From assembly GCA_937998305.1 (NCBI GenBank), contig CALLDL010000033.1, positions 6,094-70,093 on the forward strand: 64,000 nt of DNA. The letters run 5' to 3'. The notes beneath the pieces are model-generated. The model was not told where the DNA came from, did not search any database, and saw only the letters and a list, made by a program, of their open reading frames with translations. A program made the position numbers and the translations under genes. Positions 8,875-63,521 of the stretch are shown here, piece after piece (positions within the stretch are counted from its first letter, which is position 1; the number at the start of each line of letters is the position of its first letter). Origin of the DNA: an uncultured Desulfobacterales bacterium. GTDB lineage: Bacteria; Desulfobacterota; Desulfobacteria; Desulfobacterales; UBA11574.

Positions 8875-10752
8875 TCATGCATCTTCTTCGGTGGAGAACT
8901 TATCGATACCGGGCAGCAGGCCGGCCTCACCCGCGATCCAGACGACCAGGCGTCCGAAGGGACTAAGCTGCTTCCGTAATTCCATAACCTGACGTGCAAG
9001 CGCTGGTTCGTCCGTAATGATCCCATCGATTCCACGGCTCATCATCACGGACATCTGGACCGGGTCATTGATGGTCCACACGTAGACCTTCATCCCTTGC
9101 TTGTGGGCACGGTGGATCATGGTGGCCGATGCCGCCACGGAATTGAGCGCCAGAAAGTTAAGATTCAGTCGGGTTAGGTCACCGATGCTGGCGGTGTTGA
9201 GCAGACCGCGGGTCCAGGCCGGCCGCAGAGCGGCGACCTTGCGCAGGCCATCGATTTTGAGGGACATAACCATGATGTCCGATTCCATACCGGTTTGCTC
9301 CACAATATCCGCGACCCGTGATTCGAGGTTCCGATCGTGACCGTAATACTTGAGTTCTATCACGACTCCCAGCTTATCTTTGGCCAAGTCCAATGCCTGG
9401 CGCAGCGTCGGGACCCGCTGGTTTGAGTATTCAGGAGCATACCAACTGCCGATGTCAAGGTCGCGAAGGTTTTCATTCGTGGCGTCCCAGACTTTGAGGT
9501 TGCTCCGCGCAACCTTCAAAAAATCGCTGTCATGGGCGACCACGATGACATCGTCGGCATTTTCCTGAACGTCGAGCTCAATCCAATCCGCATTGTCGAC
9601 GATTGCTCGCTGGAACGACGCCATCGTATTTTCCGGCGCTGTTCCTGAAGCGCCGCGGTGCGCAATGATCTCGATTTTAGCTTCCTCGTCGATGCTTCGG
9701 CTGACAGCATAGCCGCCCAGGATAATCAGGACCAACGCCGCGGCACTGAGTCCGATAATTATCTTGCCCGGAATTTGCAGGGACGCCTTTTCACCGAGTG
9801 AACCTCGTGCAGCGAGTTCCGGATCGAGTCGGCCGGGACCGGCCAAGGATTGATAGAGGCGGACGATTAGCAGGGGGAACAACGCCGTGCTGAGTATCGC
9901 AATCGCAAGATTCCCCAATCCCGCCAGCATTAGGGTAATCCCTAACCCTATCGCGATAATAGCGAAATTCCCCCCGAGGTCTGGGATCAGGACATTGCCT
10001 ATTAGGCCGACGAGGAACGTGACGAGTCCCGAGAGAAGGGCAACCCCGGCGAGCCACGAGGCGAGCAGGAGTGCCATTTTCCAGCCGAACACCACCAACT
10101 TTCTAGCACTCTCGCGCAGTGCCTGCCTAGCGCGATTACCCTGGAACAGTATCAAAGGCATAGTTATAATCCAACTCGAACACTTTTTTAGCACGATGAC
10201 CGCCATGATCATCATCAACAGCCCGGCAATCGCTATCGCCCACCAGAACTCGGGCGGTTTGTCGGCCAGGTAGAAATTGATGTCATGCTTGTTCAGTAAA
10301 AGCAGATAGACACCGCCTACACCTGCGAGAAACGGGGCGGAGATGAGCAACAAGCGAACGATAACGTGTCCGGCCAGCTTCACCAGCTCAAAGGCGTATC
10401 TTGTCACGTAGCGCATCGAGTCCAGCCAGGTCACCCTGCGGTCTTCGACGGCCCCAAATCCGACCACCATCAGAACGCTCTGTTGTGCAAACAACACACC
10501 GAGGGAAACCGAACACACGATTATAAGTGCCGTGATGCCGAGCGGATGGAGCAGAAACAGGATGATATCCGTATCGCTCAAGACACCGTCGTCCGTCTGA
10601 AGGAGGAAGAGCTTTATAAGAAGACCGACCATTGGGGTCAGAACCACCATCACGATTGTCCGTGCGAGCAGATCGGTAAGCAACAGTTGGGGCCATGTAC
10701 GGCGAAAATCATTTCGGGCTTCGAGCAGATCGAGCCACCGGATCGGTTTCAC
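8875..10752 (-). CDS. membrane-anchored glycerophosphodiester phosphodiesterase (N-terminal multi-TM domain plus C-terminal GDPD domain)
   Basis: GDPD catalytic motifs IAHRGASGTAPENT and ELDVQ...VVAHD. About 340 aa of TM helices precede them. GTG start overlaps the TAG stop of the upstream protease gene. The gene is visibly GC-rich. Confidence 0.85.
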   Translation of the reverse strand: MKPIRWLDLLEARNDFRRTWPQLLLTDLLARTIVMVVLTPMVGLLIKLFLLQTDDGVLSDTDIILFLLHPLGITALIIVCSVSLGVLFAQQSVLMVVGFGAVEDRRVTWLDSMRYVTRYAFELVKLAGHVIVRLLLISAPFLAGVGGVYLLLLNKHDINFYLADKPPEFWWAIAIAGLLMMIMAVIVLKKCSSWIITMPLILFQGNRARQALRESARKLVVFGWKMALLLASWLAGVALLSGLVTFLVGLIGNVLIPDLGGNFAIIAIGLGITLMLAGLGNLAIAILSTALFPLLIVRLYQSLAGPGRLDPELAARGSLGEKASLQIPGKIIIGLSAAALVLIILGGYAVSRSIDEEAKIEIIAHRGASGTAPENTMASFQRAIVDNADWIELDVQENADDVIVVAHDSDFLKVARSNLKVWDATNENLRDLDIGSWYAPEYSNQRVPTLRQALDLAKDKLGVVIELKYYGHDRNLESRVADIVEQTGMESDIMVMSLKIDGLRKVAALRPAWTRGLLNTASIGDLTRLNLNFLALNSVAASATMIHRAHKQGMKVYVWTINDPVQMSVMMSRGIDGIITDEPALARQVMELRKQLSPFGRLVVWIAGEAGLLPGIDKFSTEEDA

Positions 10753-13700
10753 TAAGTTCTCTCCTCACTCGGATTTAACATGAACAGAACAATTCGCATG
10801 AAACTCGAGACAAAGAGAATTAAGAGTGTCATTGTGAATAAGGGTCCGAGTTTTAAGATAACCCAGCTAATTCCCACGACAGGTAACAGACCCATGCGAA
10901 CCGCCGTTCTTAAGCTGTCATGTTTTGCGATGAAATCGGCTATAGGCGGTGAATAGATGTAGTAAAGACGAACGAAACTCTTTCCTACTTTATTGCCAAG
11001 CAGAAAACGGTCACGGAAATCACGCAGAATCTTGACATGTGGCTCCATCAATGATCCATAAGCTGCGGTGGCTATGAAGCATCCGCCTCCGCCACCACTA
11101 TCACTTTCTGTAATAACGGTAGTGCTTCCACTGGAACTTTTGATAGGCGTGGCTGGACCACCGACATCAACAATTACTCCATTGGCTGTTAGATCATCAT
11201 CACCTCTTGCACCATCTAAGAAATACAACGTGATGACATTTCCATTGATCTCTGCACCCGTCTGACTATCATAAAAGAATTCGTACCAATGGTTAGTGTT
11301 ATTATCAGGAGTTGGGCCATACTTGTAATAGGTATCAAAGGTCGCACCATCTTGAAAATACAAGGTGATGGTTACAGGATCTCCTATATTGATACCGTTT
11401 ATAGTAAACTCAAAGAACCCGTAAGAAAACTCCACATTTGAAGGTGCATCTGTCGCAGAAGGATTGGTAACAGCTTTGATGTTGTTGATTGTTGTGCCAA
11501 TGGGCGACGTCATAGTAACGTATTCATGACCATCATAAGTACGAAATGATGCTACATTATCTTGAAGCAAGTCAGCGATACCGTCATTATTACCGTCATA
11601 ATTTGGATCATCTCCACCGGGTCCTTGTTCTTCTTCGTCTGGTAAGCTGTCACCGTCATCATTCGTATCCGCACAGTCAAGGATTTTATCTCCATCTGAA
11701 TCCGTATCAGCTACACCGCAACCACAGATGCCGGGACCAATTTTGTTGGGATCGCTCGGGCAATTGTCATTACAGTCTAAAGTTCCGTCGCCGTCTGTAT
11801 CAAATTCAGGCACACCACATCCGCAGATACCGGGTTCAGTCTTGTTGGGATCATTTGGGCAGTTATCATTACAATCTGGCGTTCCATCTTCGTCAGCATC
11901 AATTAAATTGTTACAATTATCATTACAGTCAGGTATTCCATCACTATCACTATCAATATCAGCGACACCGCAACCGCAGATGCCGGGTCCAATTTTATTG
12001 GGATCGCTGGGACAATTGTCGTTACAGTCCAAAGTACCATCACTGTCTGTATCAATATCGGATTCACCGCATCCGCAGATGCCAGGTTCAGTCTTGTTGG
12101 GGTCGTTGGGGCAATTGTCGTTACAATCCAAAGTGCCGTCACTGTCTGTATCAATATCAGGTTCACCACATCCGCAAATACCAGGTTCAGTCTTGTTGGG
12201 GTCATTAGGACAATTATCTAAATTTACCAGGCCATAACCATAGATGTTGTCCTTTCCGCTGCTTCCTAAATCTATTGCCAAAGATATTAAAGCATCTCGT
12301 AATTGTGAGATTGAAAAGCTTGGATTTCTGGACAACATGAGTGCTGCTGCTCCTGCAACATGCGGACTTGCTGCACTCGTTCCGGCGAATGTGCTATAAA
12401 TATTATTTGTAACAAAATCGGGGCCCATTAAATCTGGCTTGGTTCTGCCGTCATTCGTAGGGCCCTGAGAACTATAGTATTCTTGCGGGCCTGTTCCCCA
12501 ATTATTATAGTTAATCGCACCAACAGTCATCACGCCAGTAGCATCCGCAGGATTAATCAGGCTGCTTGATCCCACCGATGGGATCAAAACATGGGATACA
12601 CTGTAAACCTCAAGTTGATGATTTGAGGTGGCATTATATTTGCTGATTCCCAGATAATAACTGCCTGTTGCCGGCACAGAATAAACAATTCGTTCACTTG
12701 GTAATTGCGTTCCTGTTTGCGAGTTAACGCTGCCGGCTACGACATTTAAAGCACTGTCTAAAAGATAGAGGTCATAGTCCTGATCGGTCAAGGGCCAGGC
12801 ATTCCATGTTAAATATGCAACAATAGTGTCACCAGAATATGCATAAATATTTATGGATTCGTCGGAGGCAGAAACATTGTGCCATCCATCACTGTCAGAA
12901 TCCATGAACGTTGCTTCGTAATGCCGAGTTGCCTGGTTTCCGGCAGAATTGACCCAGAGGATATCATTTGCATAGGCATCGTTGGCAGTACAAACTGAGT
13001 TGCTATAATAGCATTCACCATCATAAAAGTTGCTGTTAAACCATCCGCCGGAAAGATTTATAATTTTAATTCCATTGTCGATGGCGTAATCTTTAGCATC
13101 CTTCAAATCGAGTATGTCTGAAATTTTTATTAGATAAAGCTGGGCATCCGGAGCCATATCGTAAACAATCCCTGCTACGCCTGTCCCGTGTTTTTCTGTT
13201 TCTGATGAAAAATCAGTCGATACACATTTTGGCCCTGTGCAATCGACCTTTATGACATTGTTTGGAAGTTCGCCGTTGGATATAGCTGAAGATAATTGAG
13301 CAAAACCCGAATCTATTACGGCAACTTTTACACCAGAACCCGCATATCCTTCAGAATGATAGGCGGAAGCCCCGATTAAATCTACACCTTCGCTTTCCAC
13401 TGTTAGCGGAATAAATTTGTCGGGCAGTGTAACGAACGAGACCTCTATTGTACTATCAGCTATAAGACTTAGCATGTTGATAGGAACTTTTATCTTCGTT
13501 ACATTATCAACACGTTTGATGATTTTAGCGCCAAAGGCCTGAATGGATACCTCATCGATAGTAAGCCCTGGTTTTGAAATCAAAAAAACTGTGACGTTTT
13601 CCTGATCATCCATTTTTATATTTCTATTCTTAGCAAACATCCGAGCAGCTTTTAGACTCTTTTGATATTCTTTTTCCAAGTTTAATAGATTACCCTCTAC

Positions 13701-13832
13701 TTTAGGGTGAACACCTCCTTTTTTAAGAACTATATTCAGGTCTTGAGCACCGGCAATAGTAAAAAAGATGATGCTAAGCAGTACGGCTGAGGTAAGTATA
13801 CTTAGAGGCGTTTTAAATCTATTTCTATTCAA
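10752..13832 (-). CDS. secreted subtilisin-like (S8) serine protease with thrombospondin-type-3-like Ca-binding repeats and a hydrophobic C-terminal tail
   Basis: Signal peptide present. Catalytic triad contexts [17 protein letters not shown] and [16 protein letters not shown]. Five copies of [29 protein letters not shown]. C-terminus reads [14 protein letters not shown] followed by TM helices. Confidence 0.85.
11670..12216 (-). repeat. in-frame tandem repeats (about 105-bp period, about 5 copies) inside the protease gene
   Basis: Repeated DNA blocks such as CCGCAGATGCC(G/A)GG..TTGTTGGG(A/G)TC..GGGCA(A/G)TT(G/A)TC. The protein-level module is repeated. Spurious repetitive antisense ORFs in the track also reflect it. 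Confidence 0.8.
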
Positions 13833-14354: not shown

Positions 14355-15233
14355 TTACTTAGATTCGATATTTTTAGGCCTTTTTACTACGGTCAAAAGC
14401 ATCTTAAACCGTTTTACAGCGGTGACAGAATGGGGAATGTCCGCCGGCATAACCACGACCTGTCCTTTACCAACAGTCATTTCTTTTCCATCAATATTAA
14501 CCACCGCCTCACCATCCAAGATTTGCACCATTGCATCACCAGGCGCCGTATGCGTGCTGACTCCCTCTCCCTCGTCAAATGAAAACAGAGTTAAGCTAAG
14601 GGATGAATTTTGAGAAAATGTCCTGCTTACAACTCGTCCCTCTTCATATGCAACCAATTCATCGAGATTATGGGGTTCTGAGAATTTTATGTTTTTTATA
14701 AGTACGGGTTTGTCCATTTTTCCTCCTGAGCATTTTTGAAAGCCGGTTTCTTCCAGCCGGTTTCTGATGATAGTTTTTGACGGCACTCTACCCGAACATA
14801 TGACCTTTCCATTAATAATCAAGGCAGGTGTCCCCTTGACGTTGTATTTTGCGATTTCTTCCACATCTCTAACATGTTCAAGATCAGCAGTTAAGTTCAT
14901 TTCTGATAAAACTTCCATAACATCATTTTCAAGACTGTTACATAGGACACAACCTGCGCCAAGAACTTTAATTTCAAGCCCTTGATCGTTTTCATCATCA
15001 AAAGGCTGACCGAGAAATTTTCTAAATTCCCTGACAAACGCACGCCCATATTCTTTTTGAACCTTGTCGGAGATGTAATTCTTTTTTGACAGCCGGTTTA
15101 ATAATTCTTCGGCGACCACATCATCAGGTTGTTTAGAATATAACCCTGCTATGTCCTTAAAGGTTTCTTTAAGTCCCACAAAGCCGACTTTGTGTTTACC
15201 GATTTTTATCTGGGTTACATCAGATTTCGTCAT
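14355..15233 (-). CDS. fusion ORF: N-terminal domain plus thioredoxin-like (redox-active disulfide, Thioredoxin_3-type) domain plus C-terminal cupin domain
   Basis: GAGCVLC motif within KVLGAGCVLCNSL...INGKVICSGRVP. Cupin-like C-terminus HTAPGDAMVQILDGEAVVNIDGKEMTV...VMPADIPHSV. An internal AGGAGG-N4-ATG sits at the domain junction. Confidence 0.6.
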   Translation of the reverse strand: MTKSDVTQIKIGKHKVGFVGLKETFKDIAGLYSKQPDDVVAEELLNRLSKKNYISDKVQKEYGRAFVREFRKFLGQPFDDENDQGLEIKVLGAGCVLCNSLENDVMEVLSEMNLTADLEHVRDVEEIAKYNVKGTPALIINGKVICSGRVPSKTIIRNRLEETGFQKCSGGKMDKPVLIKNIKFSEPHNLDELVAYEEGRVVSRTFSQNSSLSLTLFSFDEGEGVSTHTAPGDAMVQILDGEAVVNIDGKEMTVGKGQVVVMPADIPHSVTAVKRFKMLLTVVKRPKNIESK

Positions 15234-15568
15234 GGTTTAATAATACTCTAATTGATCGTAAACAAAATGGGAAAAATGTTTTATGTGTTTATTGTATTTT
15301 TCATTATAGTGGATTCAGATGCATTTTCATAGCTCTTCTTTAAATGAGATATAGATTTATTAAAAAAAGCTCATTTTGTTTACCTCTTATTACACTTGAA
15401 CCCTTACTCCCAAATAATTGGGAGAAGAACCAAATATGAAAATCGAAATCCAGAATAATAAACAAACCTGAATGATCAAAATTTAAACGATTGAAATATG
15501 ATTCACTATTTGCTAATTTTCAGTATCGGAAGCAGCATGGATCCGGAAAAAAGGAGTTTCAAGTTCAT

Positions 15569-16225
15569 ATGATTGACATCAGCAACTTAGAGTTTTCGTA
15601 TCTTACCGGAGATTTCTTTCTGAATATACCCGAATTTTCGGTTGAGAAGAATGAGAAGGTCGCTGTGATAGGTCCCAGCGGAACCGGAAAAACAACGTTG
15701 CTGAACCTGATCGCCGGTATCATCGTGTCGAACCAAGGGAGCATCAGTGTCAATGATACGTCCGTAAGTCAACTCAATGATGCACAGCGCAGACAATTTC
15801 GAATAACCCATATCGGGTTTGTGTTTCAGGATTTTGAACTTCTCGACTATCTCAATGTTTATGACAACATTTTACATCCCTACCGGATAACAGACGCCTT
15901 GAACCTGGAATCATCTGTAAAACAGCGTGCCCGGTTGATGGCCCAAGAGATGGGTATCGGCGATAAACTCGAACGAGGGTCAACTGATCTGTCCCAGGGT
16001 GAAAAACAACGGGCTGCAATTTGCCGGGCGTTGTTGCCGCAACCCAAGCTGATTTTGGCGGATGAGGCCACCGGCAACCTCGATCCTGAGAACAAAACGC
16101 GCATTCTGGATCTGTTGTTTCGTTCGGTAAAGGAACATGATACCACCTTGCTGGCGGTAACCCATGACTATGAATTGCTTGAACGATTTGACAGGGTCTT
16201 TGATTTTAAAGATTTTAGATTTTAG
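15569..16225 (+). CDS. ABC transporter ATP-binding protein (LolD/MacB-type)
   Basis: Walker A GPSGTGKTT, signature LSQGEKQRAAICRAL, Walker B ILADEATGNLD. I prefer the ATG at 15569 (MIDISNLEFSY, AAGGAG upstream) over the TTG at 15491 in the track. Confidence 0.85.
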   Translation: MIDISNLEFSYLTGDFFLNIPEFSVEKNEKVAVIGPSGTGKTTLLNLIAGIIVSNQGSISVNDTSVSQLNDAQRRQFRITHIGFVFQDFELLDYLNVYDNILHPYRITDALNLESSVKQRARLMAQEMGIGDKLERGSTDLSQGEKQRAAICRALLPQPKLILADEATGNLDPENKTRILDLLFRSVKEHDTTLLAVTHDYELLERFDRVFDFKDFRF

Positions 16226-16243
16226 ATTTTGGATTTTGGATTG
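16202..16243. repeat. GATTTT(A/G) heptad array
   Basis: gattttaaaGATTTTAGATTTTAGATTTTGGATTTTGGATT. It overlaps the last codons (FKDFRF) and the stop of the ATPase gene. Confidence 0.8.
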
Positions 16244-16322
16244 CCGGACAAATCACTATTTCAAGTAAATTAGGATTTACATATCTGCAGCGAAGAAACT
16301 GTATTTATAAGAGGGGGTATTA

Positions 16323-16760
16323 GTGAACGAAGAGAAATTGAAGAAAAGGACCAAAGAATTTGCGAAGAATATTATTCATCTCTGTAGAAAATTACCAACC
16401 AATCGCGAAGGAAGACGGATTGGAAATCAATTGTTTAGATCCGGCACTTCAGTGGCTGCAAATTACAGGTCAGCCTGCAGAGGGAGGTCTAAAGCCGAAT
16501 TTATATCAAAACTGGCAATTGTGGAAGAAGAGGCCGACGAGACCCTGTTCTGGCTCGAATTAATCAAAGAGATGGACATCTTAAAAGAATCGATAGTGGA
16601 TGCTTTGATGAAAGAGAGCAATGAAATTATCGCTATAATTGTATCATCTATCAAAACCGTAAAGCTGAAAAATCCAAAATCCAAAATCCAAACATGTTTG
16701 ACAACTTATACATCGCCTGGAAGTATGTCAGCTACAATCGGGTCAAAACAACGGTTTTGA
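16323..16760 (+). CDS. four-helix-bundle protein (23S rRNA intervening-sequence protein / Avd-like family)
   Basis: EFAKNIIHLCRKLPTNREGRRIGNQLFRSGTSVAANYRSACRGRSKAEFISKLAIVEEEADETLFWLELI is typical of this family. The 3' end reads through the heptad array and overlaps the permease gene start, so the C-terminal roughly 25 aa look like an accidental extension. Confidence 0.8.
   Translation: MNEEKLKKRTKEFAKNIIHLCRKLPTNREGRRIGNQLFRSGTSVAANYRSACRGRSKAEFISKLAIVEEEADETLFWLELIKEMDILKESIVDALMKESNEIIAIIVSSIKTVKLKNPKSKIQTCLTTYTSPGSMSATIGSKQRF
16668..16692. repeat. AAAATCC heptad array (inverted copy of the 16202-16243 array)
   Basis: AAAAATCCAAAATCCAAAATCCAAA. Its reverse complement shares the exact 18-mer GATTTTGGATTTTGGATT with the left array. 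Confidence 0.8.
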
Positions 16761-17875
16761 TTGCCTGTATTACGCTGATATCCTTTCTCCCGTTTTCACT
16801 GCAACTGCTGCTCAATGAAAGCGAGCGGCAGCTGATGTCCAGGGCCGTCAACACGCCGCTGATCGTGGGTGCTAAAGGGAGCTCTCTGGATCTTGTGATG
16901 AACACCCTTTATTTTGGGGATGATGTTCCTGAATTAATATCCATGGAGGCGTTGGACCGGATTGCCGAAACCGATCTGTCGCTGCCCATTCCAATGTATG
17001 TCCGCTTTAAGGCACGGGGACATCCCATCGCCGGCACCACGCTGGATTACTTTGAATTTCGAGGATTAAAGATTGTTCAGGGGCGACAGTTTGCGGTGCT
17101 GGGCGATTGTGTCCTCGGCGCAAAGGTTGCCAAAAGCCTGGCATTAAAACCCGGTGACAGCCTGATATCTTCGCCGGAAAGTCTGTTTGACCTGGCCGGT
17201 GTCTATCCTTTGAAGATGAAGGTGGCAGGGATACTAGAAAAGAGCCATACCTCTGATGATCTGGTCGTTTTCGTGGATCTGAAAACCACCTGGGTGATTC
17301 AAGGATTGGGACATGGCCATCAGGATGTTACCAAAATTAAAGATCCGACGTTGGTCCTCAAACGAACAGACTCCAACGTGGCGGCCACCGCCAAGCTGTA
17401 CCACTTCACAGAAATTACGAAAAAAAACATGGACTCATTTCATTTTCATGGAAACTTGTCGGCTTATCCCATCAGCGCTGTGATTGCCGTACCTTATGAT
17501 ACCAAATCCGGCACGATCCTCAGGGGAAGATATCTGTCAAAGGAAGAAACCCAGCAAATCGTCAAGCCTGAAGAGGTGATCGACAGTCTGTTGCAAAATA
17601 TTTTCCGAATCAAAAACGTAATGGATGCCGTCATTGCAGTGGTGGCCCTGGCAACTGTTCTGGCCGTTGTTCTCGTCTTTGCCCTTTCGTTAAGACTCCG
17701 GCAGCGTGAGATTCAGACAATTTTCAAAATAGGTTGCAGCCGGATGACCATTACAAAACTTGTCGCCGCAGAAATCATGATCATCGTTTGTTCGAGTGCC
17801 GTTCTATGCGGTATCATGATGCTGGCGATACACACGGTTTCCAATGATCTGGTGAGGATGTTGTTTATACGATGA
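16694..17875 (+). CDS. ABC transporter permease (FtsX/MacB-like)
   Basis: 393 aa. One N-terminal TM helix, a large extracytoplasmic domain, and three C-terminal TM helices (VIAVVALATVLAVVLVFALSL..., AAEIMIIVCSSAVLCGIMMLAI). Confidence 0.8.
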   Translation: MFDNLYIAWKYVSYNRVKTTVLIACITLISFLPFSLQLLLNESERQLMSRAVNTPLIVGAKGSSLDLVMNTLYFGDDVPELISMEALDRIAETDLSLPIPMYVRFKARGHPIAGTTLDYFEFRGLKIVQGRQFAVLGDCVLGAKVAKSLALKPGDSLISSPESLFDLAGVYPLKMKVAGILEKSHTSDDLVVFVDLKTTWVIQGLGHGHQDVTKIKDPTLVLKRTDSNVAATAKLYHFTEITKKNMDSFHFHGNLSAYPISAVIAVPYDTKSGTILRGRYLSKEETQQIVKPEEVIDSLLQNIFRIKNVMDAVIAVVALATVLAVVLVFALSLRLRQREIQTIFKIGCSRMTITKLVAAEIMIIVCSSAVLCGIMMLAIHTVSNDLVRMLFIR

Positions 17876-17904
17876 ATTTAGATTTTGGAATTTGGATTTT
17901 GGAG
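17875..17904. repeat. third GATTTTG-type heptad array (same orientation as the first)
   Basis: AATTTAGATTTTGGAATTTGGATTTTGGAG, starting at the permease stop codon. Confidence 0.7.
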
Positions 17905-18035
17905 TGGGTATTGGGTCACTGTGAAACATTGTGCGTAAAGATAAACATATCGCCTTTTTTGAAAACATATATCGATGATTTTTCACTGCTAACATTAGGT
18001 GAAACCACTTTAAGGCTTATTTTGGGAGGTGATGC

Positions 18036-18968
18036 ATGATTACTAAACGATCATTTCTAATTCAACAATCAAGAGTTTATTCGTGGTTAATCATAACCGC
18101 AATATTCATCCTTATTTTTTCAGTAAGACATGGCTCGGCTGCCGAAATACTTACTGTTTACGCGGTGAACTATCCGTTGAAGTATTTTGCCGAGCGTATC
18201 GGCGGAGACCACGTGAAGGTGGAATTTCCTGCACCGGCAGATGTTGACCCGGCCCACTGGAACCCGGATCTTGAAAACATTTCAGCCTACCAGAAGGCCG
18301 ACCTCATACTGATCAATGGTGCCGGGTATGCCAAGTGGGTAAACAAAGTCAGTCTGCCGCGATCAAAAATGGTGAACACTTCCAGACAATTTAAGGATCA
18401 GTATATCACATCCAAAGAAGTCATGACCCACAGCCATGGCGGAGAAGGCAAACATGCCCATGAATCCCTTGCCTTTACCACCTGGCTTGATTTGGAACTT
18501 GCCGCTCGACAAGCCGAAGCGATCGCAGCTGCTATGGGTCGAAAACAGCCGGCATTGCAAAAAACGTTTCAAGCGAACCATGCATCGCTGGCAAAGGAGC
18601 TGAAGGCACTGGATCAAAAAATTCAAGCCATCGTATCTAAGAACCCCTCGATGCCTTTGATTGTATCCCATCCGGTGTACGACTATTTTGCAAGGCGCTA
18701 CAGGCTAAATATAGTAAGTGTCCATTGGGAGCCGGACGAGGCACCGGGTGACGAGCAGTGGTTGGAACTTAAAAAAATATTGAAGCATCATCCGGCCAAA
18801 TGGATGATCTGGGAAGGGGATCCGTTAAAGGCCACCATCGAAAAACTAAAAGGGCTGCAAATCAACAGCATTGTTTTTAATCCTTGCGGGAATGTGCCGG
18901 CTGAGGGTGATTTTCTTACCGTCATGCGGCAAAACATCGAAAACCTTAAAATGGCTTTTGACTACTGA
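18036..18968 (+). CDS. metal (Zn/Mn-type) ABC substrate-binding protein, ZnuA/TroA family
   Basis: Signal/TM segment, then VYAVNYPLKYFAERIGGDHVKV...DVDPAHWNP...ADLILINGAGYAKW, with a His-rich segment MTHSHGGEGKHAHE. Confidence 0.75.
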   Translation: MITKRSFLIQQSRVYSWLIITAIFILIFSVRHGSAAEILTVYAVNYPLKYFAERIGGDHVKVEFPAPADVDPAHWNPDLENISAYQKADLILINGAGYAKWVNKVSLPRSKMVNTSRQFKDQYITSKEVMTHSHGGEGKHAHESLAFTTWLDLELAARQAEAIAAAMGRKQPALQKTFQANHASLAKELKALDQKIQAIVSKNPSMPLIVSHPVYDYFARRYRLNIVSVHWEPDEAPGDEQWLELKKILKHHPAKWMIWEGDPLKATIEKLKGLQINSIVFNPCGNVPAEGDFLTVMRQNIENLKMAFDY

Positions 18969-19045
18969 ATTTCGGTGATTTTCTTCTCTAGAGCTACCTA
19001 CATTTTAATTCAATAAAAATATTTAAACCAGAGACTGAGAACCTG

Positions 19046-52150: not shown

Positions 52151-52400
52151 CTAACTATTGTCCATCCATAAATGGTCTTTTTGTCCAATCTCTGCGCTTG
52201 CCCTGTGAAATGCAGAGCCTATTTCTCTGGGGTTATGCTCAAAAAATAATCCTCGGAATATTAAACATATGCCTGCCTGTCCCGATAGATTTTCCATCGG
52301 GGCGGTTATTTTTTTCGAATGCCCCTCCGGGGCGTAGGCCCTACGGGCCGGAGGCTTGATCTTGAACAAAAATCCTAATTTATGGATTGACACTAACTAT
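52151..52400 (+). mobile_element. MITE family B copy 1 (234-bp core 52159-52392 flanked by 8-bp direct repeat CTAACTAT)
   Basis: TIRs TGTCCATCCATAAAT... and ...ATTTATGGATTGACA. Identical CTAACTAT at 52151-52158 and 52393-52400. Internal GC-rich palindrome CCTCCGGGGCGTAGGCCCTACGGGCCGGAGG. Confidence 0.8.
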
Positions 52401-55760: not shown

Positions 55761-57022
<1,262 letters not shown>

Positions 57023-60568: not shown

Positions 60569-62191
60569 ATGGAAAATCAAATTTTGAAAAGGCGGGCGAT
60601 TTTGAATAAAAAAATATTTATATTTGGAAACGGATCGTGTGCCCATCACCTTGCCAAAGAATTTCTGTCTTCGGGCGTAGATGTTATCCTTGCCACTTCA
60701 GATAAAACAGCTGATGTTTCTTCAACCATGGATTCTGTGGCATTGGAAATCCTCACCAACACAAAACTCCTTTCGTGCCAGGGGATTGTGGGGAATTTCA
60801 GGCTGACTGTAGTTTGCAATGGTGAAAGAGTAACAAAACGTGTTGCTGAAATTATTATTGCTGAAGAAGATCGGCGAAAACCGAATTTCTCGTTGTATGG
60901 TTTAAAGGCGGCTTCTAACGTTATCAGTCAATCCCAAATGAAAACGTTGCTGTTGGGATCATCACATGAAAAAAACATCCTTTCAGAAGCAAAAACGGTA
61001 GGTTTTTTTACCGGGCTTGTTAACGAAAGCCATCCGGTTGTCGCAGAAGAAATTATGCATTTGGCGCTTAACCTCCAGTCTGACTTTAATGTACAAACAT
61101 ATATCCTAACTAAAAATCTCAAAGTCGCAGGAAACGGTCTTGAAGCCCTTTATCGAAAAAGCAAAAAAGCCGGTGCAGTTTATATTAAGTTTACAGACAA
61201 TATTCCCGCCATCCACCAGAAAAGGGATAACGATATCCAAATCGAGTTCATCGACGAAATAACAACCAAAAAATTCAGACTGTCTCCGGATATAACGGTT
61301 GTAGATGAAACCATCGTTCCTTTTGAAAATGCTGCCCATCTTGCAGGGATATTGAATGTCGATACCGATCCTGGTGGATTTGTTCAGACGGATAATGTTC
61401 ATAGATATTGTGTGTTGACGAACAGAAAAGGGATTATGGCGGCAGGTCCTTCAAGAAGTATTCAGAATCGGGGTGATCAGATAATGGATGCTGAAAACGT
61501 TGCGCTTGCATCCGCCGGTATTCTGGTGGACCGATTGGCGCTGACAGCAGACAGGGCTGAAGTTGACACGGGACAGTGCATACGGTGTCTGACCTGCTAT
61601 CGTCTTTGTCCATACCATGCAATAACACTGAACACTCGGGTGACGGTTGTACCGGATGCCTGCGAACGGTGCGGCATTTGTGCCGCCCAATGCCCAAGGG
61701 GCGCTGTCCGTATAAAAGATCTTGAACCTGGGTCGGTCTTAGATGTGATTAAAATCGGCGACCCCATTCAAACCGAAAAGGCGTTTACGCCCTCTATTGT
61801 GGCGTTCTGCTGCAGCCGCTCGTCTGCCCAGGCCGGTGATCTGGCGCTGTGCATGGGCCATAACCTGCCTTCGGGGTTAAAGATCATTGAGGTGCCATGT
61901 GCGGGGAGTATATCTTATGATCACATCTTTGCAGCGTTTAGAAACCATGCTGACGGAGTTCTTGTGGCGACCTGCCATAAAGGAAACTGTCATTCAGAAC
62001 GGGGGAACATTTTTGCAGAACAAACTGTGGAACAGATAAAGGAGGTGTTCTCTCAAATCGGTTTTGAAAATGATCGTTTGCTTATACAAACCCTTGCGTC
62101 CAATATGGGAACGGAATTTGCTCAGATTGTAAATCGCTTTGAAGAGACCATTGTGGAGCTCGGCCCAAGCCGGCTTAAGAAGAATCAATAG
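60569..62191 (+). CDS. fusion protein: HdrA-like Rossmann-type N-terminal region, 2x[4Fe-4S] ferredoxin domain, and MvhD (hydrogenase iron-sulfur subunit D) domain
   Basis: CIRCLTCYRLCP and CERCGICAAQCP. MvhD-like C-terminus IVAFCCSRS...EVPCAGSISYDHIFAAFRNHADGVLVATCHKGNCH. Confidence 0.75.
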   Translation: MENQILKRRAILNKKIFIFGNGSCAHHLAKEFLSSGVDVILATSDKTADVSSTMDSVALEILTNTKLLSCQGIVGNFRLTVVCNGERVTKRVAEIIIAEEDRRKPNFSLYGLKAASNVISQSQMKTLLLGSSHEKNILSEAKTVGFFTGLVNESHPVVAEEIMHLALNLQSDFNVQTYILTKNLKVAGNGLEALYRKSKKAGAVYIKFTDNIPAIHQKRDNDIQIEFIDEITTKKFRLSPDITVVDETIVPFENAAHLAGILNVDTDPGGFVQTDNVHRYCVLTNRKGIMAAGPSRSIQNRGDQIMDAENVALASAGILVDRLALTADRAEVDTGQCIRCLTCYRLCPYHAITLNTRVTVVPDACERCGICAAQCPRGAVRIKDLEPGSVLDVIKIGDPIQTEKAFTPSIVAFCCSRSSAQAGDLALCMGHNLPSGLKIIEVPCAGSISYDHIFAAFRNHADGVLVATCHKGNCHSERGNIFAEQTVEQIKEVFSQIGFENDRLLIQTLASNMGTEFAQIVNRFEETIVELGPSRLKKNQ

Positions 62192-62297
62192 CCGGAAAAT
62201 CCAGCGTCGTCCAAATCATGAAAGGGAATATAGGAAACAGGATAGGGGAAATAGGAAAGAGGTCGGCTGAGGGTATAACGTTAAATGAGGTAGTCAT

Positions 62298-63521
62298 ATG
62301 ACATCACCATCTGAAATCATCGATATGGATCAACTCGATCACACCAGATGTAGAACCTGGCCGTTTTCCCAAGATTTTTGCGTGACTTGCGGCCTGTGTG
62401 CAAGTTCTTGTCCGGCTTCTGGAATCGATGGATTTGACCCGCGCATGCTGGTCCGAATGGTTTCTCTGGGATTTGTCGAGGATCTGGTAAACGCCCGATG
62501 GCCGTGGATATGCACCATGTGCGGTAAATGCGAAAATGTTTGTCCCATGCAGGTCGACATTGCCGATCTGATACGAAAAATTCGATCCAAAAGAGAACGT
62601 GAAAAGGTTCCGGGAATTTTACACAAGGGTCTTGCGGCGGCTTTGGAGACCGGCAATAATCTTCGCCTGCCAAAGGAAGATTTTATGTTCATCATCGAGG
62701 ATGTGGCCGAAGAAGTCGCCGAGGAACCTGGTTTTGAAGGGTTCAAAGCGCCCATTGACAAAAAGGGGGCAAACATACTGACCACCATACACAACAAACT
62801 GGTAAATACCCATACCGAAGATTTAAAACACTGGTGGAAGATTTTTCATGCGGCCAAAGAAGACTGGACCGTAACCTCGGAAAACTGGGAGGGTACCAAC
62901 TGGGGATATTTTACGGGTGACGATGATGCCATGAAGGTCATGGTCGGCCGGATCGTGGAGCAGATGAAGCGACTGGAAATAAAAAATCTTCTTTGCCCTG
63001 AATGAGGTCACTCCTATCTTGCGACCCGGTCGGGTCTTGAAAAATATTATCCTGAAGCACTCAAAAAAATTAGTGTGACCACGGTTTTTGACCTAATGAT
63101 CAAATATATTAAAGAAGGTCGCATCAAACTCGACAAATCGAGATTTATACAACTTGCCGCTTATCACGACCCATGTAATTACGGGAGAAAGGCCCAGAAG
63201 CATTTTGGACACGGTTATTTTGACGAGCCGCGCTGGATTATGGATCAGTGCCTTGAAAACTGGGTCGATCTTTATCCCAATAGAATGGATCAAATATGCT
63301 GTGGCGGGGGCGGTGGAACCATGACCACCGGATATAACGATGAACGTGTTTTTTATGCCAGAAAAAAAATCGATCAGATCAGGGCCACAGGGGCAAAGCT
63401 GATTGTGGTTCCCTGCCACAGTTGCCACGGTCAGTTTAATAATGTGAAATCCGAATACGATTTTGATGATCTTGAAGTGAAGTATCTGTGGGAACTGGTG
63501 GCCGACTGCCTGATTTTATAA
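62298..63521 (+). CDS. HdrD/GlpC-like Fe-S (2x[4Fe-4S] plus CCG-domain) selenoprotein; in-frame UGA = Sec at 63003-63005
   Basis: Track ORFs 62298..63005 and 63075..63521 are in the same frame, and the only stop between them is one TGA. N-terminal part: CVTCGLCASSCP and CTMCGKCENVCP. C-terminal part: CCGGGGG and VVPCHSCHGQ. The junction reads LLCPE-U-GHSYLA. A hairpin follows. Confidence 0.8.
63023..63036 (+). promoter_or_regulatory. SECIS-like hairpin downstream of UGA
   Basis: GACCC-GGTC-GGGTC, with 17 nt separating it from the UGA. The apical GGUC matches the hairpin after the other UGA (31622-31642). Confidence 0.6.

Follow-up and report, generated by a model that had tools for sequence, protein, structure and literature searches.

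Intervening sequences (IVSs) of 23S rRNA that contain an open reading frame (ORF), such as those of Coxiella burnetii and Leptospira, encode S23p, a protein of family PF05635. Genes for TIGR02436 "four helix bundle protein" are annotated very widely, and to our knowledge no function has been described for them outside diversity-generating retroelements (DGRs). In Coxiella, the IVS is 428-444 nt long, holds the S23p (PF05635) ORF in the loop of a 28-bp stem and carries, immediately ahead of the ORF, GACAGAT heptamers that number two or three depending on the strain; the first of these repeats is where RNase III cuts (PMC4990558). Heptamer repeats located before start codons were reported in Beggiatoaceae, Cyanobacteria and Bacteroidetes (PMC4679880) and in Nostoc (bioRxiv 2022.06.06.494920), with no known partner. 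In Haemophilus influenzae, a transcribed (ATCTTTC)n tract in the 5' untranslated region (UTR) of hmw1A contributes to a hairpin processed by RNase III, an enzyme on which changes of repeat number depend as well (PMC12721329). In the present work, we describe a 64,000-nt stretch of an uncultured Desulfobacterales bacterium (contig CALLDL010000033.1; hereafter, the window), in which a gene of the same family, here called the four-helix-bundle (4HB) gene, lies between two mutually inverted arrays of GATTTTG-type heptads within an ABC transporter operon.

The segment 16202-16692 is a discrete cassette, composed of a forward array, the 4HB gene and a reverse-complement array, and placed at an overlapping ATPase/permease junction. 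It is one member of a large class, spread over many phyla, whose TIGR02436 genes occupy the loop of a tandem-heptad hairpin. The occurrence of this layout across phyla, together with insertion into rRNA, points to a widespread and largely undescribed gene cassette. As the best reading, to which we give slightly better than even chances, we propose an IVS-like cassette that is co-transcribed with the host operon and whose heptad stem can be cut by RNase III.

Organization of the cassette

The ATPase gene of the operon (15569-16225, + strand, ATG at 15569, 218 aa; from the ORF list, PF00005 at 3.4e-30) runs into the first array, where its stop codon TAG is found at 16223-16225, and its product ends in ...VFDFKDFRF. 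Array 1, the 5' arm, is a (GATTTTR)n tract on the + strand at 16202-16243, detected by pattern search and by Tandem Repeats Finder (TRF; period 7, 4.7 copies, 96% matches), in which 16202-16215 is native heptad-like coding sequence and 16209-16243 is the tandem array proper. It is unchanged among population variants. The cassette leader (16244-16322, +), delimited on the sequence, provides a good ribosome-binding site, GAGGGGG at 16311-16317, and downstream of it, 79 nt past array 1, the 4HB gene starts with GTG at 16323 (16323-16760, +; TIGR02436 / PF05635 by NCBIfam and Pfam, canonical domain 16323-16673). Array 2, the 3' arm at 16668-16692, has the + strand reading (AAAATCC)3.4, equivalent to GATTTTG on the - strand, with 100% TRF matches. 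The MacB-like ABC permease gene (16694-17875, +, 393 aa, PF12704 at 6.6e-08, stop TGA at 17873-17875) has its ATG at 16694, 1 nt after array 2; no Shine-Dalgarno sequence is present upstream of this start, and array 2 is its immediate leader.

Positions 16225-16242 (GATTTTGGATTTTGGATT) are the exact reverse complement of 16671-16688, and the match between the arms continues beyond this 18-mer, with 95% identity over 22 nt and 92% over 24 nt. In a + strand transcript, array 1 (16214-16242) is predicted to form a long-range stem with array 2 (16669-16692), spanning 16214-16692 and enclosing the 4HB gene in ~480 nt. A third array, the solo (GAWTTTR)n tract at 17874-17903 (+; TRF), is oriented like array 1 and overlaps with the stop codon of the permease gene; the orthologues L121, L205 and L206 lack it. 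The three GATTTTG-type arrays are thus positioned at consecutive gene junctions of one ABC operon, and no further arrays of this type were found in the 64-kb window. When up to two mismatches are allowed, GATTTTGGATTTTG gives 10 matches vs 2.3 expected, a number reached by none of 100 shuffles, and eight of the ten matches fall in arrays 1-3.

This arrangement confirms the initial annotation of the locus, which had described arrays at the gene junctions with the third in direct orientation at the permease stop, a 4HB gene beginning about 80 nt past array 1 and running into an array that adjoins the permease ATG, and an exactly complementary 18-mer shared by arrays 1 and 2. The view that the terminal ATPase residues FKDFRF are encoded by the repeat was right in part: the stop lies in the array, and the array proper supplies the last two residues (RF) with the stop codon, while the DFKDF codons are native and are kept in cassette-free orthologues as GATTTTAAGGATTT.

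In regard to the area around array 3, a 55-aa gene starting within the array is publicly annotated at 17872-18039. It has no family match, and the spacer holding it measures 160 nt in the window vs 23-34 nt in orthologues, leaving 130 nt past array 3 unexplained relative to them. The annotated gene is probably not a real one.

The 4HB protein and its variable end

The 4HB protein matches PF05635 at 1.1e-18 (67.8 bits, cut-off 33.8, residues 6-107) and TIGR02436 at 3.1e-28 (98.2 bits, cut-off 24), covering profile positions 2-109 of 109, and by sequence homology it aligns over residues 3-114 with a solved four-helix bundle, PDB 2RLD chain A (E 1.4e-17). Its close homologues number in thousands and have a canonical length of 117 aa. 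In the window, the ORF has no stop at that point; it passes through array 2 (KNPKSKIQ) and ends at 16760, 67 nt inside the permease gene, giving 145 aa. C-terminal tails such as NPKSKIQNPKSKI, which are translated (AAAATCC)n, occur in about one in seven of the best 120 homologues. Natural alleles of array 2 with 2, 3 or 5 units are found on contigs with an identical permease and otherwise ~99% identical DNA, and the 4HB products have 123 aa with two units, 145 aa with three and 130 aa with five. Two or five units bring the 4HB stop into overlap with the permease start (ATGTTTGA), and the window carries the three-unit allele with a frameshifted 4HB 3' end. The locus therefore has a repeat-number polymorphism that shifts the reading frame, as in phase-variable contingency loci, and it may influence expression. 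With a dN/dS of ~0.06-0.08 (dS saturated), the 4HB protein is under strong purifying selection.

The accessory variability determinant (Avd) of DGRs is likewise a PF05635 protein with a four-helix bundle that forms a pentamer. Membership in a DGR was considered and rejected, as no reverse transcriptase or template/variable repeat pair lies beside the 4HB gene of the window.

Comparison with described elements

The cassette resembles the Coxiella IVS in the protein family encoded in the loop, in size (~480 nt here), in a 20-28 bp inverted-repeat stem and in copy-variable tandem heptamers at the stem, which are on the 5' side in Coxiella, while here array 2 varies. Terminal inverted repeats closing a stem of ~20 bp or more, as in IVSs, are present in the window cassette, and both elements would lie within a host transcription unit, presuming co-transcription of the cassette. 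However, the host site in the window is an intercistronic operon junction instead of helix 25 or 45 of 23S rRNA, heptads make up the whole of both arms, and the 4HB gene is under strong purifying selection, in contrast to the decaying ORF of Coxiella. In accordance with its position outside rRNA, an Rfam search gave no rRNA or other match in 15000-19000. The initial annotation had seen here the architecture of an rRNA IVS transplanted into an mRNA operon, and this is well supported by inverted pairs in several phyla, by the existence of a cassette-free operon and by the Coxiella heptamers. Its claim that heptad-bracketed copies are undescribed needs to be narrowed: heptamers have been reported at the 5' end of the Coxiella IVS, although, these apart, we found no paper linking 4HB genes generally to flanking inverted heptad arrays.

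Similarly to the short tandemly repeated repetitive (STRR), TAACTGA and Nostoc heptamers, the window has tandem 7-nt units at gene boundaries near start codons. Those repeats are also intergenic, with 2-6 or more copies often directly before a start, have a patchy distribution over several phyla and are suspected of a post-transcriptional role (PMC4679880; bioRxiv 2022.06.06.494920). They are, however, direct repeats without a partner and without a link to 4HB genes, whereas arrays 1 and 2 are an inverted pair enclosing a gene, and the unit in the window is GATTTTR/GAATTTR and not TAACTGA. The hmw1A tract shares with the cassette a heptanucleotide array that makes up one arm of a long hairpin and varies in copy number within populations; it differs in that its partner arm is a unique G-rich region, its loop contains no gene, and it controls a single adhesin gene and is not a dispersed cassette. 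Finally, repetitive extragenic palindromes (REPs), bacterial interspersed mosaic elements (BIMEs), miniature inverted-repeat transposable elements (MITEs) and intercistronic stem-loops are also short inverted-repeat elements between co-transcribed genes, and gene-less heptad hairpins are similar to them. In comparison with REP/BIME elements and MITEs, the arms in the window are arbitrary tandem heptads and not a conserved palindrome, a conserved protein gene (4HB) is present in the loop, and no target-site duplication was identifiable.

Inverted heptad pairs around related genes

Relatives of the 4HB gene were sampled in 80 metagenomic loci (4HB identity 51-81%), comprising 56 non-redundant copies, and arrays were defined as GA.T recurring every 7 nt in three or more units within 250 nt upstream and 200 nt downstream. 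A forward array was present upstream in 40 of the 56 copies and a reverse one in 3, while downstream the reverse orientation prevailed (41 copies, vs 4 with a forward array); 34 copies combined a forward array upstream with a reverse one downstream. Background densities in these loci were 0.027 and 0.016 arrays per 250 nt. Since duplex energies over long flanks proved noisy, the match between flanks was scored as ungapped complementarity. The best inverted match between a gene's own flanks had a mean of 39.9, compared to 24.9 for swapped flanks, 15.5 for shuffled ones and 20.4 in direct orientation (permutation p <= 5e-5), and typical arms measured 24-38 nt. Two loci that seemed to hold two cassettes each (L130, L155) were rejected as duplicate HMM hits.

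The layout is not bound to one heptad. GATTTTG accompanies 4HB proteins of 51% to 96% identity, while homologues at 55-60% bear other heptads, and distant relatives (29-55% identity; viral contigs) share the layout with unrelated units. It was found with annotated 4HB genes in cultured Planktothrix, Gloeocapsa, Chlorohelix, Nostoc and Treponema, i.e. in Cyanobacteriota, Chloroflexota and Spirochaetota, and the distant pairs include TAACCTA/TAGGTTA, TAATTCG/CGAATTA, CAATTGA/TCAATTG, ATGAGTT/AACTCAT and GGAAAGY/RCTTTCC. About one quarter of these distant relatives and isolate genes had no heptads.

The comparison of own and swapped flanks can be confounded by a genome-specific preference for certain heptads, and for that reason a whole plasmid was read. 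Nostoc flagelliforme plasmid pNFSY06 (239 kb) contains five annotated 4HB genes, each inside its own heptad pair: GGGAGCA/TGCTCCC, AAAATTC/GAATTTT, CAATTCG/CGAATTG, TAATTCG/CGAATTA and GATTGSA/TSCAATC. The arms, 28-38 nt long, are found close to the start and the stop codon of the 4HB gene and directly adjoin these codons in most copies. Of all 27 heptad arrays of the plasmid, 10 are located at most 65 nt from a 4HB gene, in what is estimated to be ~1% of the sequence, and the remaining ones include gene-less inverted pairs. The presence of five different pairs on one plasmid means that the match of the arms is pair-specific and does not follow from a genome-wide preference. The TAATTCG pair recurs in the viral contig L229. 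Altogether, the heptad sequence is arbitrary for each copy, and the two arms of each copy are complementary.

Gene-less inverted heptad pairs, with arms ~130-140 nt apart, were observed in NZ_CP024791.1 at 114501-114694 and 155753-155962 (L248 and L249). The former is inside a gene annotated as alkB, and the latter uses CAATTCG, as does the 4HB cassette 800 nt upstream.

Arrays without 4HB genes and their polarity

An exact search with GATTTTGGATTTTGGATT yielded at least 120 loci, and the figures given below for array loci refer to the 120 matches listed, distributed among Cyanobacteriota, Acidobacteriota, Chloroflexota, Verrucomicrobiota, Planctomycetota, Bacteroidota and other phyla. Only one of them holds a 4HB gene according to the subfamily HMM, and 119 have none; when 150 small ORFs next to arrays were scanned with Pfam, PF05635 did not figure among the most frequent families. 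The use of GATTTTG arrays as markers of 4HB genes was therefore rejected. The association is one-way, from 4HB gene to arrays and not in the reverse direction; in this respect the initial annotation needs correction, as arrays are common without such genes. In 39 of the 120 loci, a converging partner array lies within 200 nt, forming a gene-less hairpin.

The arrays have a polarity of their own. In the 40 nt preceding a start codon, 41 arrays read AAAATC vs 12 in the opposite sense, and after a stop codon 40 read GATTTTG vs 13 opposite. The bias is retained in solo arrays (27 vs 7 at starts and 18 vs 7 at stops), and paired arrays were converging in 42 cases and diverging in none. All three arrays of the window follow the rule, which accounts for the partnerless array 3.

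Such a polarity is what would be expected if the arrays were general intergenic heptamer leaders before starts and trailers after stops, comparable to the TAACTGA and Nostoc heptamers. The 4HB gene would then merely sit between a trailer and a leader, and the inversion of the arms would follow from the polarity rule and not from selection for a stem. The obedience of all window arrays including the solo one, the permease start without Shine-Dalgarno 1 nt past array 2 and the published heptamers (PMC4679880; bioRxiv 2022.06.06.494920) speak for this explanation as well. A genome-wide code, however, does not predict five pNFSY06 cassettes in which each heptad matches only its own partner. Against it also stand the proximity of 10 of the 27 arrays of that plasmid to its five 4HB genes and the cassette-free orthologue of the window operon, which has no array at all; moreover, one Nostoc cassette has its A-rich arm in first place. 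We thus regard it as an unlikely account of the cassette.

Relatives in the family, such as Avd, bind nucleic acid and reverse transcriptase. The heptads could be putative binding sites of the 4HB protein, a pentamer in the solved structure, with each variant reading its own heptad in autoregulation or in an RNA-protein or DNA-protein particle. Strong purifying selection on the protein, arrays abutting 4HB start and stop codons and the overlap between taxa with arrays and taxa with 4HB genes would agree with this, as would the fact that the partner of the Nostoc heptamers was reported as unknown (bioRxiv 2022.06.06.494920). On the other hand, no evident correlation between protein and heptad was found, given that homologues at 55-60% identity differ in heptad while GATTTTG goes with proteins from 51% to 96%, and 119 of 120 array loci have no 4HB gene nearby. 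We consider such binding distinctly unlikely.

Chance, or simple slippage in AT-rich intergenic DNA without any biological unit, deserves practically no credit and is refuted by the comparative data. Slippage does change the copy number of array 2, but shuffled sequences never matched the observed count, the orientation is strict and the arms are complementary in dozens of independent copies with many heptad types, and none of the paired arrays diverge.

In three cyanobacterial loci (L012, L015, L037), GATTTTG arrays are directly followed by GATTGACCCC...GGGGCTTG, a small C4/G4 hairpin, which suggests that array and hairpin form a composite repeat in Nostocales.

Evolution of the operon junction

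The cassette is present or absent as a whole unit at the orthologous junction. In GCA_018644785.1 ("Deltaproteobacteria bacterium"), with a permease 84% identical to that of the window, the ATPase and permease genes overlap by 7 nt, and the 4HB gene, array 2 and array 3 are missing. The cassette-free orthologous ATPase ends in ...DFKDFGC and overlaps the permease ATG. The comparison of orthologous operons, advised in the initial annotation, thus revealed a junction free of both cassette and arrays. Another version is seen at L205:2808-3000 (contig_7238, ERZ25039514; permease 84% identical), where the same junction has a 193-nt gene-less insert with 26-nt terminal inverted repeats and a GCAGACAWAC doublet. 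The insert folds into a closed stem (z -3.4), and elements closed by a stem have thus settled in this slot on more than one occasion. Moreover, the permease of the window is 84% identical to that of the cassette-free L206 and 75% to that of L121, which bears a cassette in the identical slot, and this conflict implies loss, a second gain or allelic exchange in the history of the locus. All 82-92%-identical 4HB homologues that were looked up occupy the identical ATPase/permease slot, with no near-identical cassette in another context among them, which indicates vertical inheritance.

Presence or absence of the whole unit and the conflict with the permease tree would be explained if the cassette were a mobile element at the DNA level, with arrays acting as terminal inverted repeats or as recombination or binding sites for an enzyme encoded elsewhere. 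Gene-less hairpins, frequent in the array loci, would represent its non-autonomous or empty forms, and the RNA stem would be a by-product. Five cassettes with different, perfectly matched arms on one plasmid, with the TAATTCG pair found again in viral L229, point in the same direction. Several observations are less favourable to mobility. No target-site duplication is identifiable between filled and empty sites, where the native GATTTTAAGGATTT obscures the left boundary; the closest homologues share one slot; the 64-kb window has a single 4HB gene, with no near-identical copy at an unrelated site; and solo arrays retain a transcription-related polarity. In blastn comparisons, the leader is similar only to orthologous loci (L201-L204, L122) and lacks conservation between cassettes. 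Among 90 neighbours of related cassettes, the most frequent families did not include transposases, integrases or reverse transcriptases, and no enrichment of these next to cassettes is apparent. We see mobility of this kind as a serious possibility, albeit one that we would not bet on. The mobile element, the leader/trailer code and the 4HB binding sites are not mutually exclusive.

The neighbouring genes are mostly co-oriented with the cassette (48/53 upstream, 39/47 downstream) and belong to ordinary operons such as histidine kinase/response regulator, pta/ackA, acrA/acrB, ABC transporters, nuoA and lexA. Cassettes of cyanobacterial plasmids lie within defence operons. In the plasmids of Gloeocapsa PCC 7428 (L210) and Candidatus Chlorohelix (L211), a cassette is found between a DUF1156 gene and a Swt1-family HEPN gene, that is, at an identical defence-type operon junction in different phyla, and in a Planktothrix plasmid (L209) between DISARM drmD and a PglX methyltransferase gene. 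Cassettes either travel with defence operons or favour them.

Stem folding and proposed mechanism

The stem between arrays 1 and 2 is found in both the minimum-free-energy and the centroid folds of 16190-16710, and the duplex of the two arrays reaches -37.7 kcal/mol vs -20.3 +/- 4.3 for shuffles (z -4.0). No promoter-like feature (sigma-70-like on the + strand) or terminator-like feature was found in the cassette interior. In the IVS-like mechanism that we prefer, the cassette, without a predicted promoter of its own, would be transcribed together with the host operon, and base pairing of arrays 1 and 2 within the transcript would give a stem of ~20-30 bp of double-stranded RNA. Cutting of this stem by RNase III would free the 4HB mRNA and separate the ATPase and permease messages, leaving array 2 as an A/C-rich permease leader without Shine-Dalgarno. 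Slippage by whole heptads would alter the stem length and the 4HB 3' reading frame: two or five units, with the stop/start overlap ATGTTTGA, would permit translational coupling of 4HB and permease, while with three units the frame shifts. The arms are probably kept complementary via concerted evolution at the DNA level, and not by compensatory selection on RNA.

Several points weigh against such a reading. The complete fold of 16190-16710 is not stabler than shuffled sequence (z -0.06), and the folding proposed in the initial annotation thus recovers the stem without showing unusual overall stability. Arm complementarity is weaker in two orthologous cassettes, L215 (z -1.5) and L217 (z -1.9), which means that strict maintenance of a perfect stem does not hold. 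Among the stem mismatches, G.U (57) and A.C (62) are in balance, a neutral or uninformative outcome as a test for selection on RNA, and therefore nothing favours RNA pairing over symmetry at the DNA level; concerted evolution of the arms fits this balance better than RNA-level compensation does, and the balance also counts in favour of the mobile element. In Planktothrix, Chlorohelix and Treponema, the 4HB gene is located between two complete hairpin modules and not within one. The high frequency of GATTTTG arrays free of 4HB genes, together with their polarity, may reflect a role independent of the cassette. Furthermore, the 7-nt size of the repeat unit is not explained by an IVS-like cassette, and its cleavage by RNase III is purely what we infer.

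A more far-reaching and speculative idea is that 4HB genes and heptamer arrays are two halves of one system, with the Avd-like 4HB protein as the partner that the heptamers have been lacking. The perfectly matched arms would then be produced actively: a repeat-adding or slipping polymerase, or a reverse transcriptase, for example, would extend both 3' ends of a linear intermediate, and this extension would yield the order (reverse-complement heptad)n - gene - (heptad)n. The 23S IVSs and gene-less hairpins would be special or decayed cases. We hold this idea to be very unlikely.

Other features of the window

The locus is bordered by a gene for a thioredoxin/cupin protein, followed by the ABC ATPase, permease and ZnuA genes, the last being the final gene of the operon and encoding a ZnuA-family substrate-binding protein (18036-18968, +, PF01297 at 8.6e-47). 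Elsewhere in the window, the genes 60569-62191 and 62298-63005, which are co-oriented, have between them a degenerate purine-rich period-7 tract (62220-62262; GAAAGRG-like, six copies, 68% matches). No inverted partner accompanies this tract, and its resemblance to the GGAAAGY heptads flanking the Treponema 4HB gene is a loose one. Tandem repeats of 99 nt (1.9 and 2.8 copies, 75-84% matches) at 11713-12215, within the gene for a 1026-aa S8 peptidase (10752-13832, - strand), encode Cys/Asp-rich modules of a large secreted subtilase. Two 16-nt tandem repeats at 52323-52355 and 56821-56853, 4.5 kb apart, have alike GC-rich units, CCCTACGGGCCGGAGG and GCCTACGCCCCGGAGG.

Implications

The rRNA IVSs and the heptamer repeats of cyanobacteria and sulfur bacteria are long-standing unexplained features of bacterial genomes. 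One structure now links three puzzles, namely the function of the 4HB family, the rRNA IVSs and these tandem heptamer repeats: a tandem-heptad hairpin, often with a 4HB gene in its loop, inserted in transcribed units such as rRNA and operons. Cultured Nostoc and Planktothrix strains bear such cassettes, which makes the proposed processing testable now. If the stem is processed as in rRNA, the cassettes would represent an RNA-level mechanism for tolerating insertions and splitting operon transcripts, and this, if true, would have consequences for the interpretation of operon expression in many phyla.

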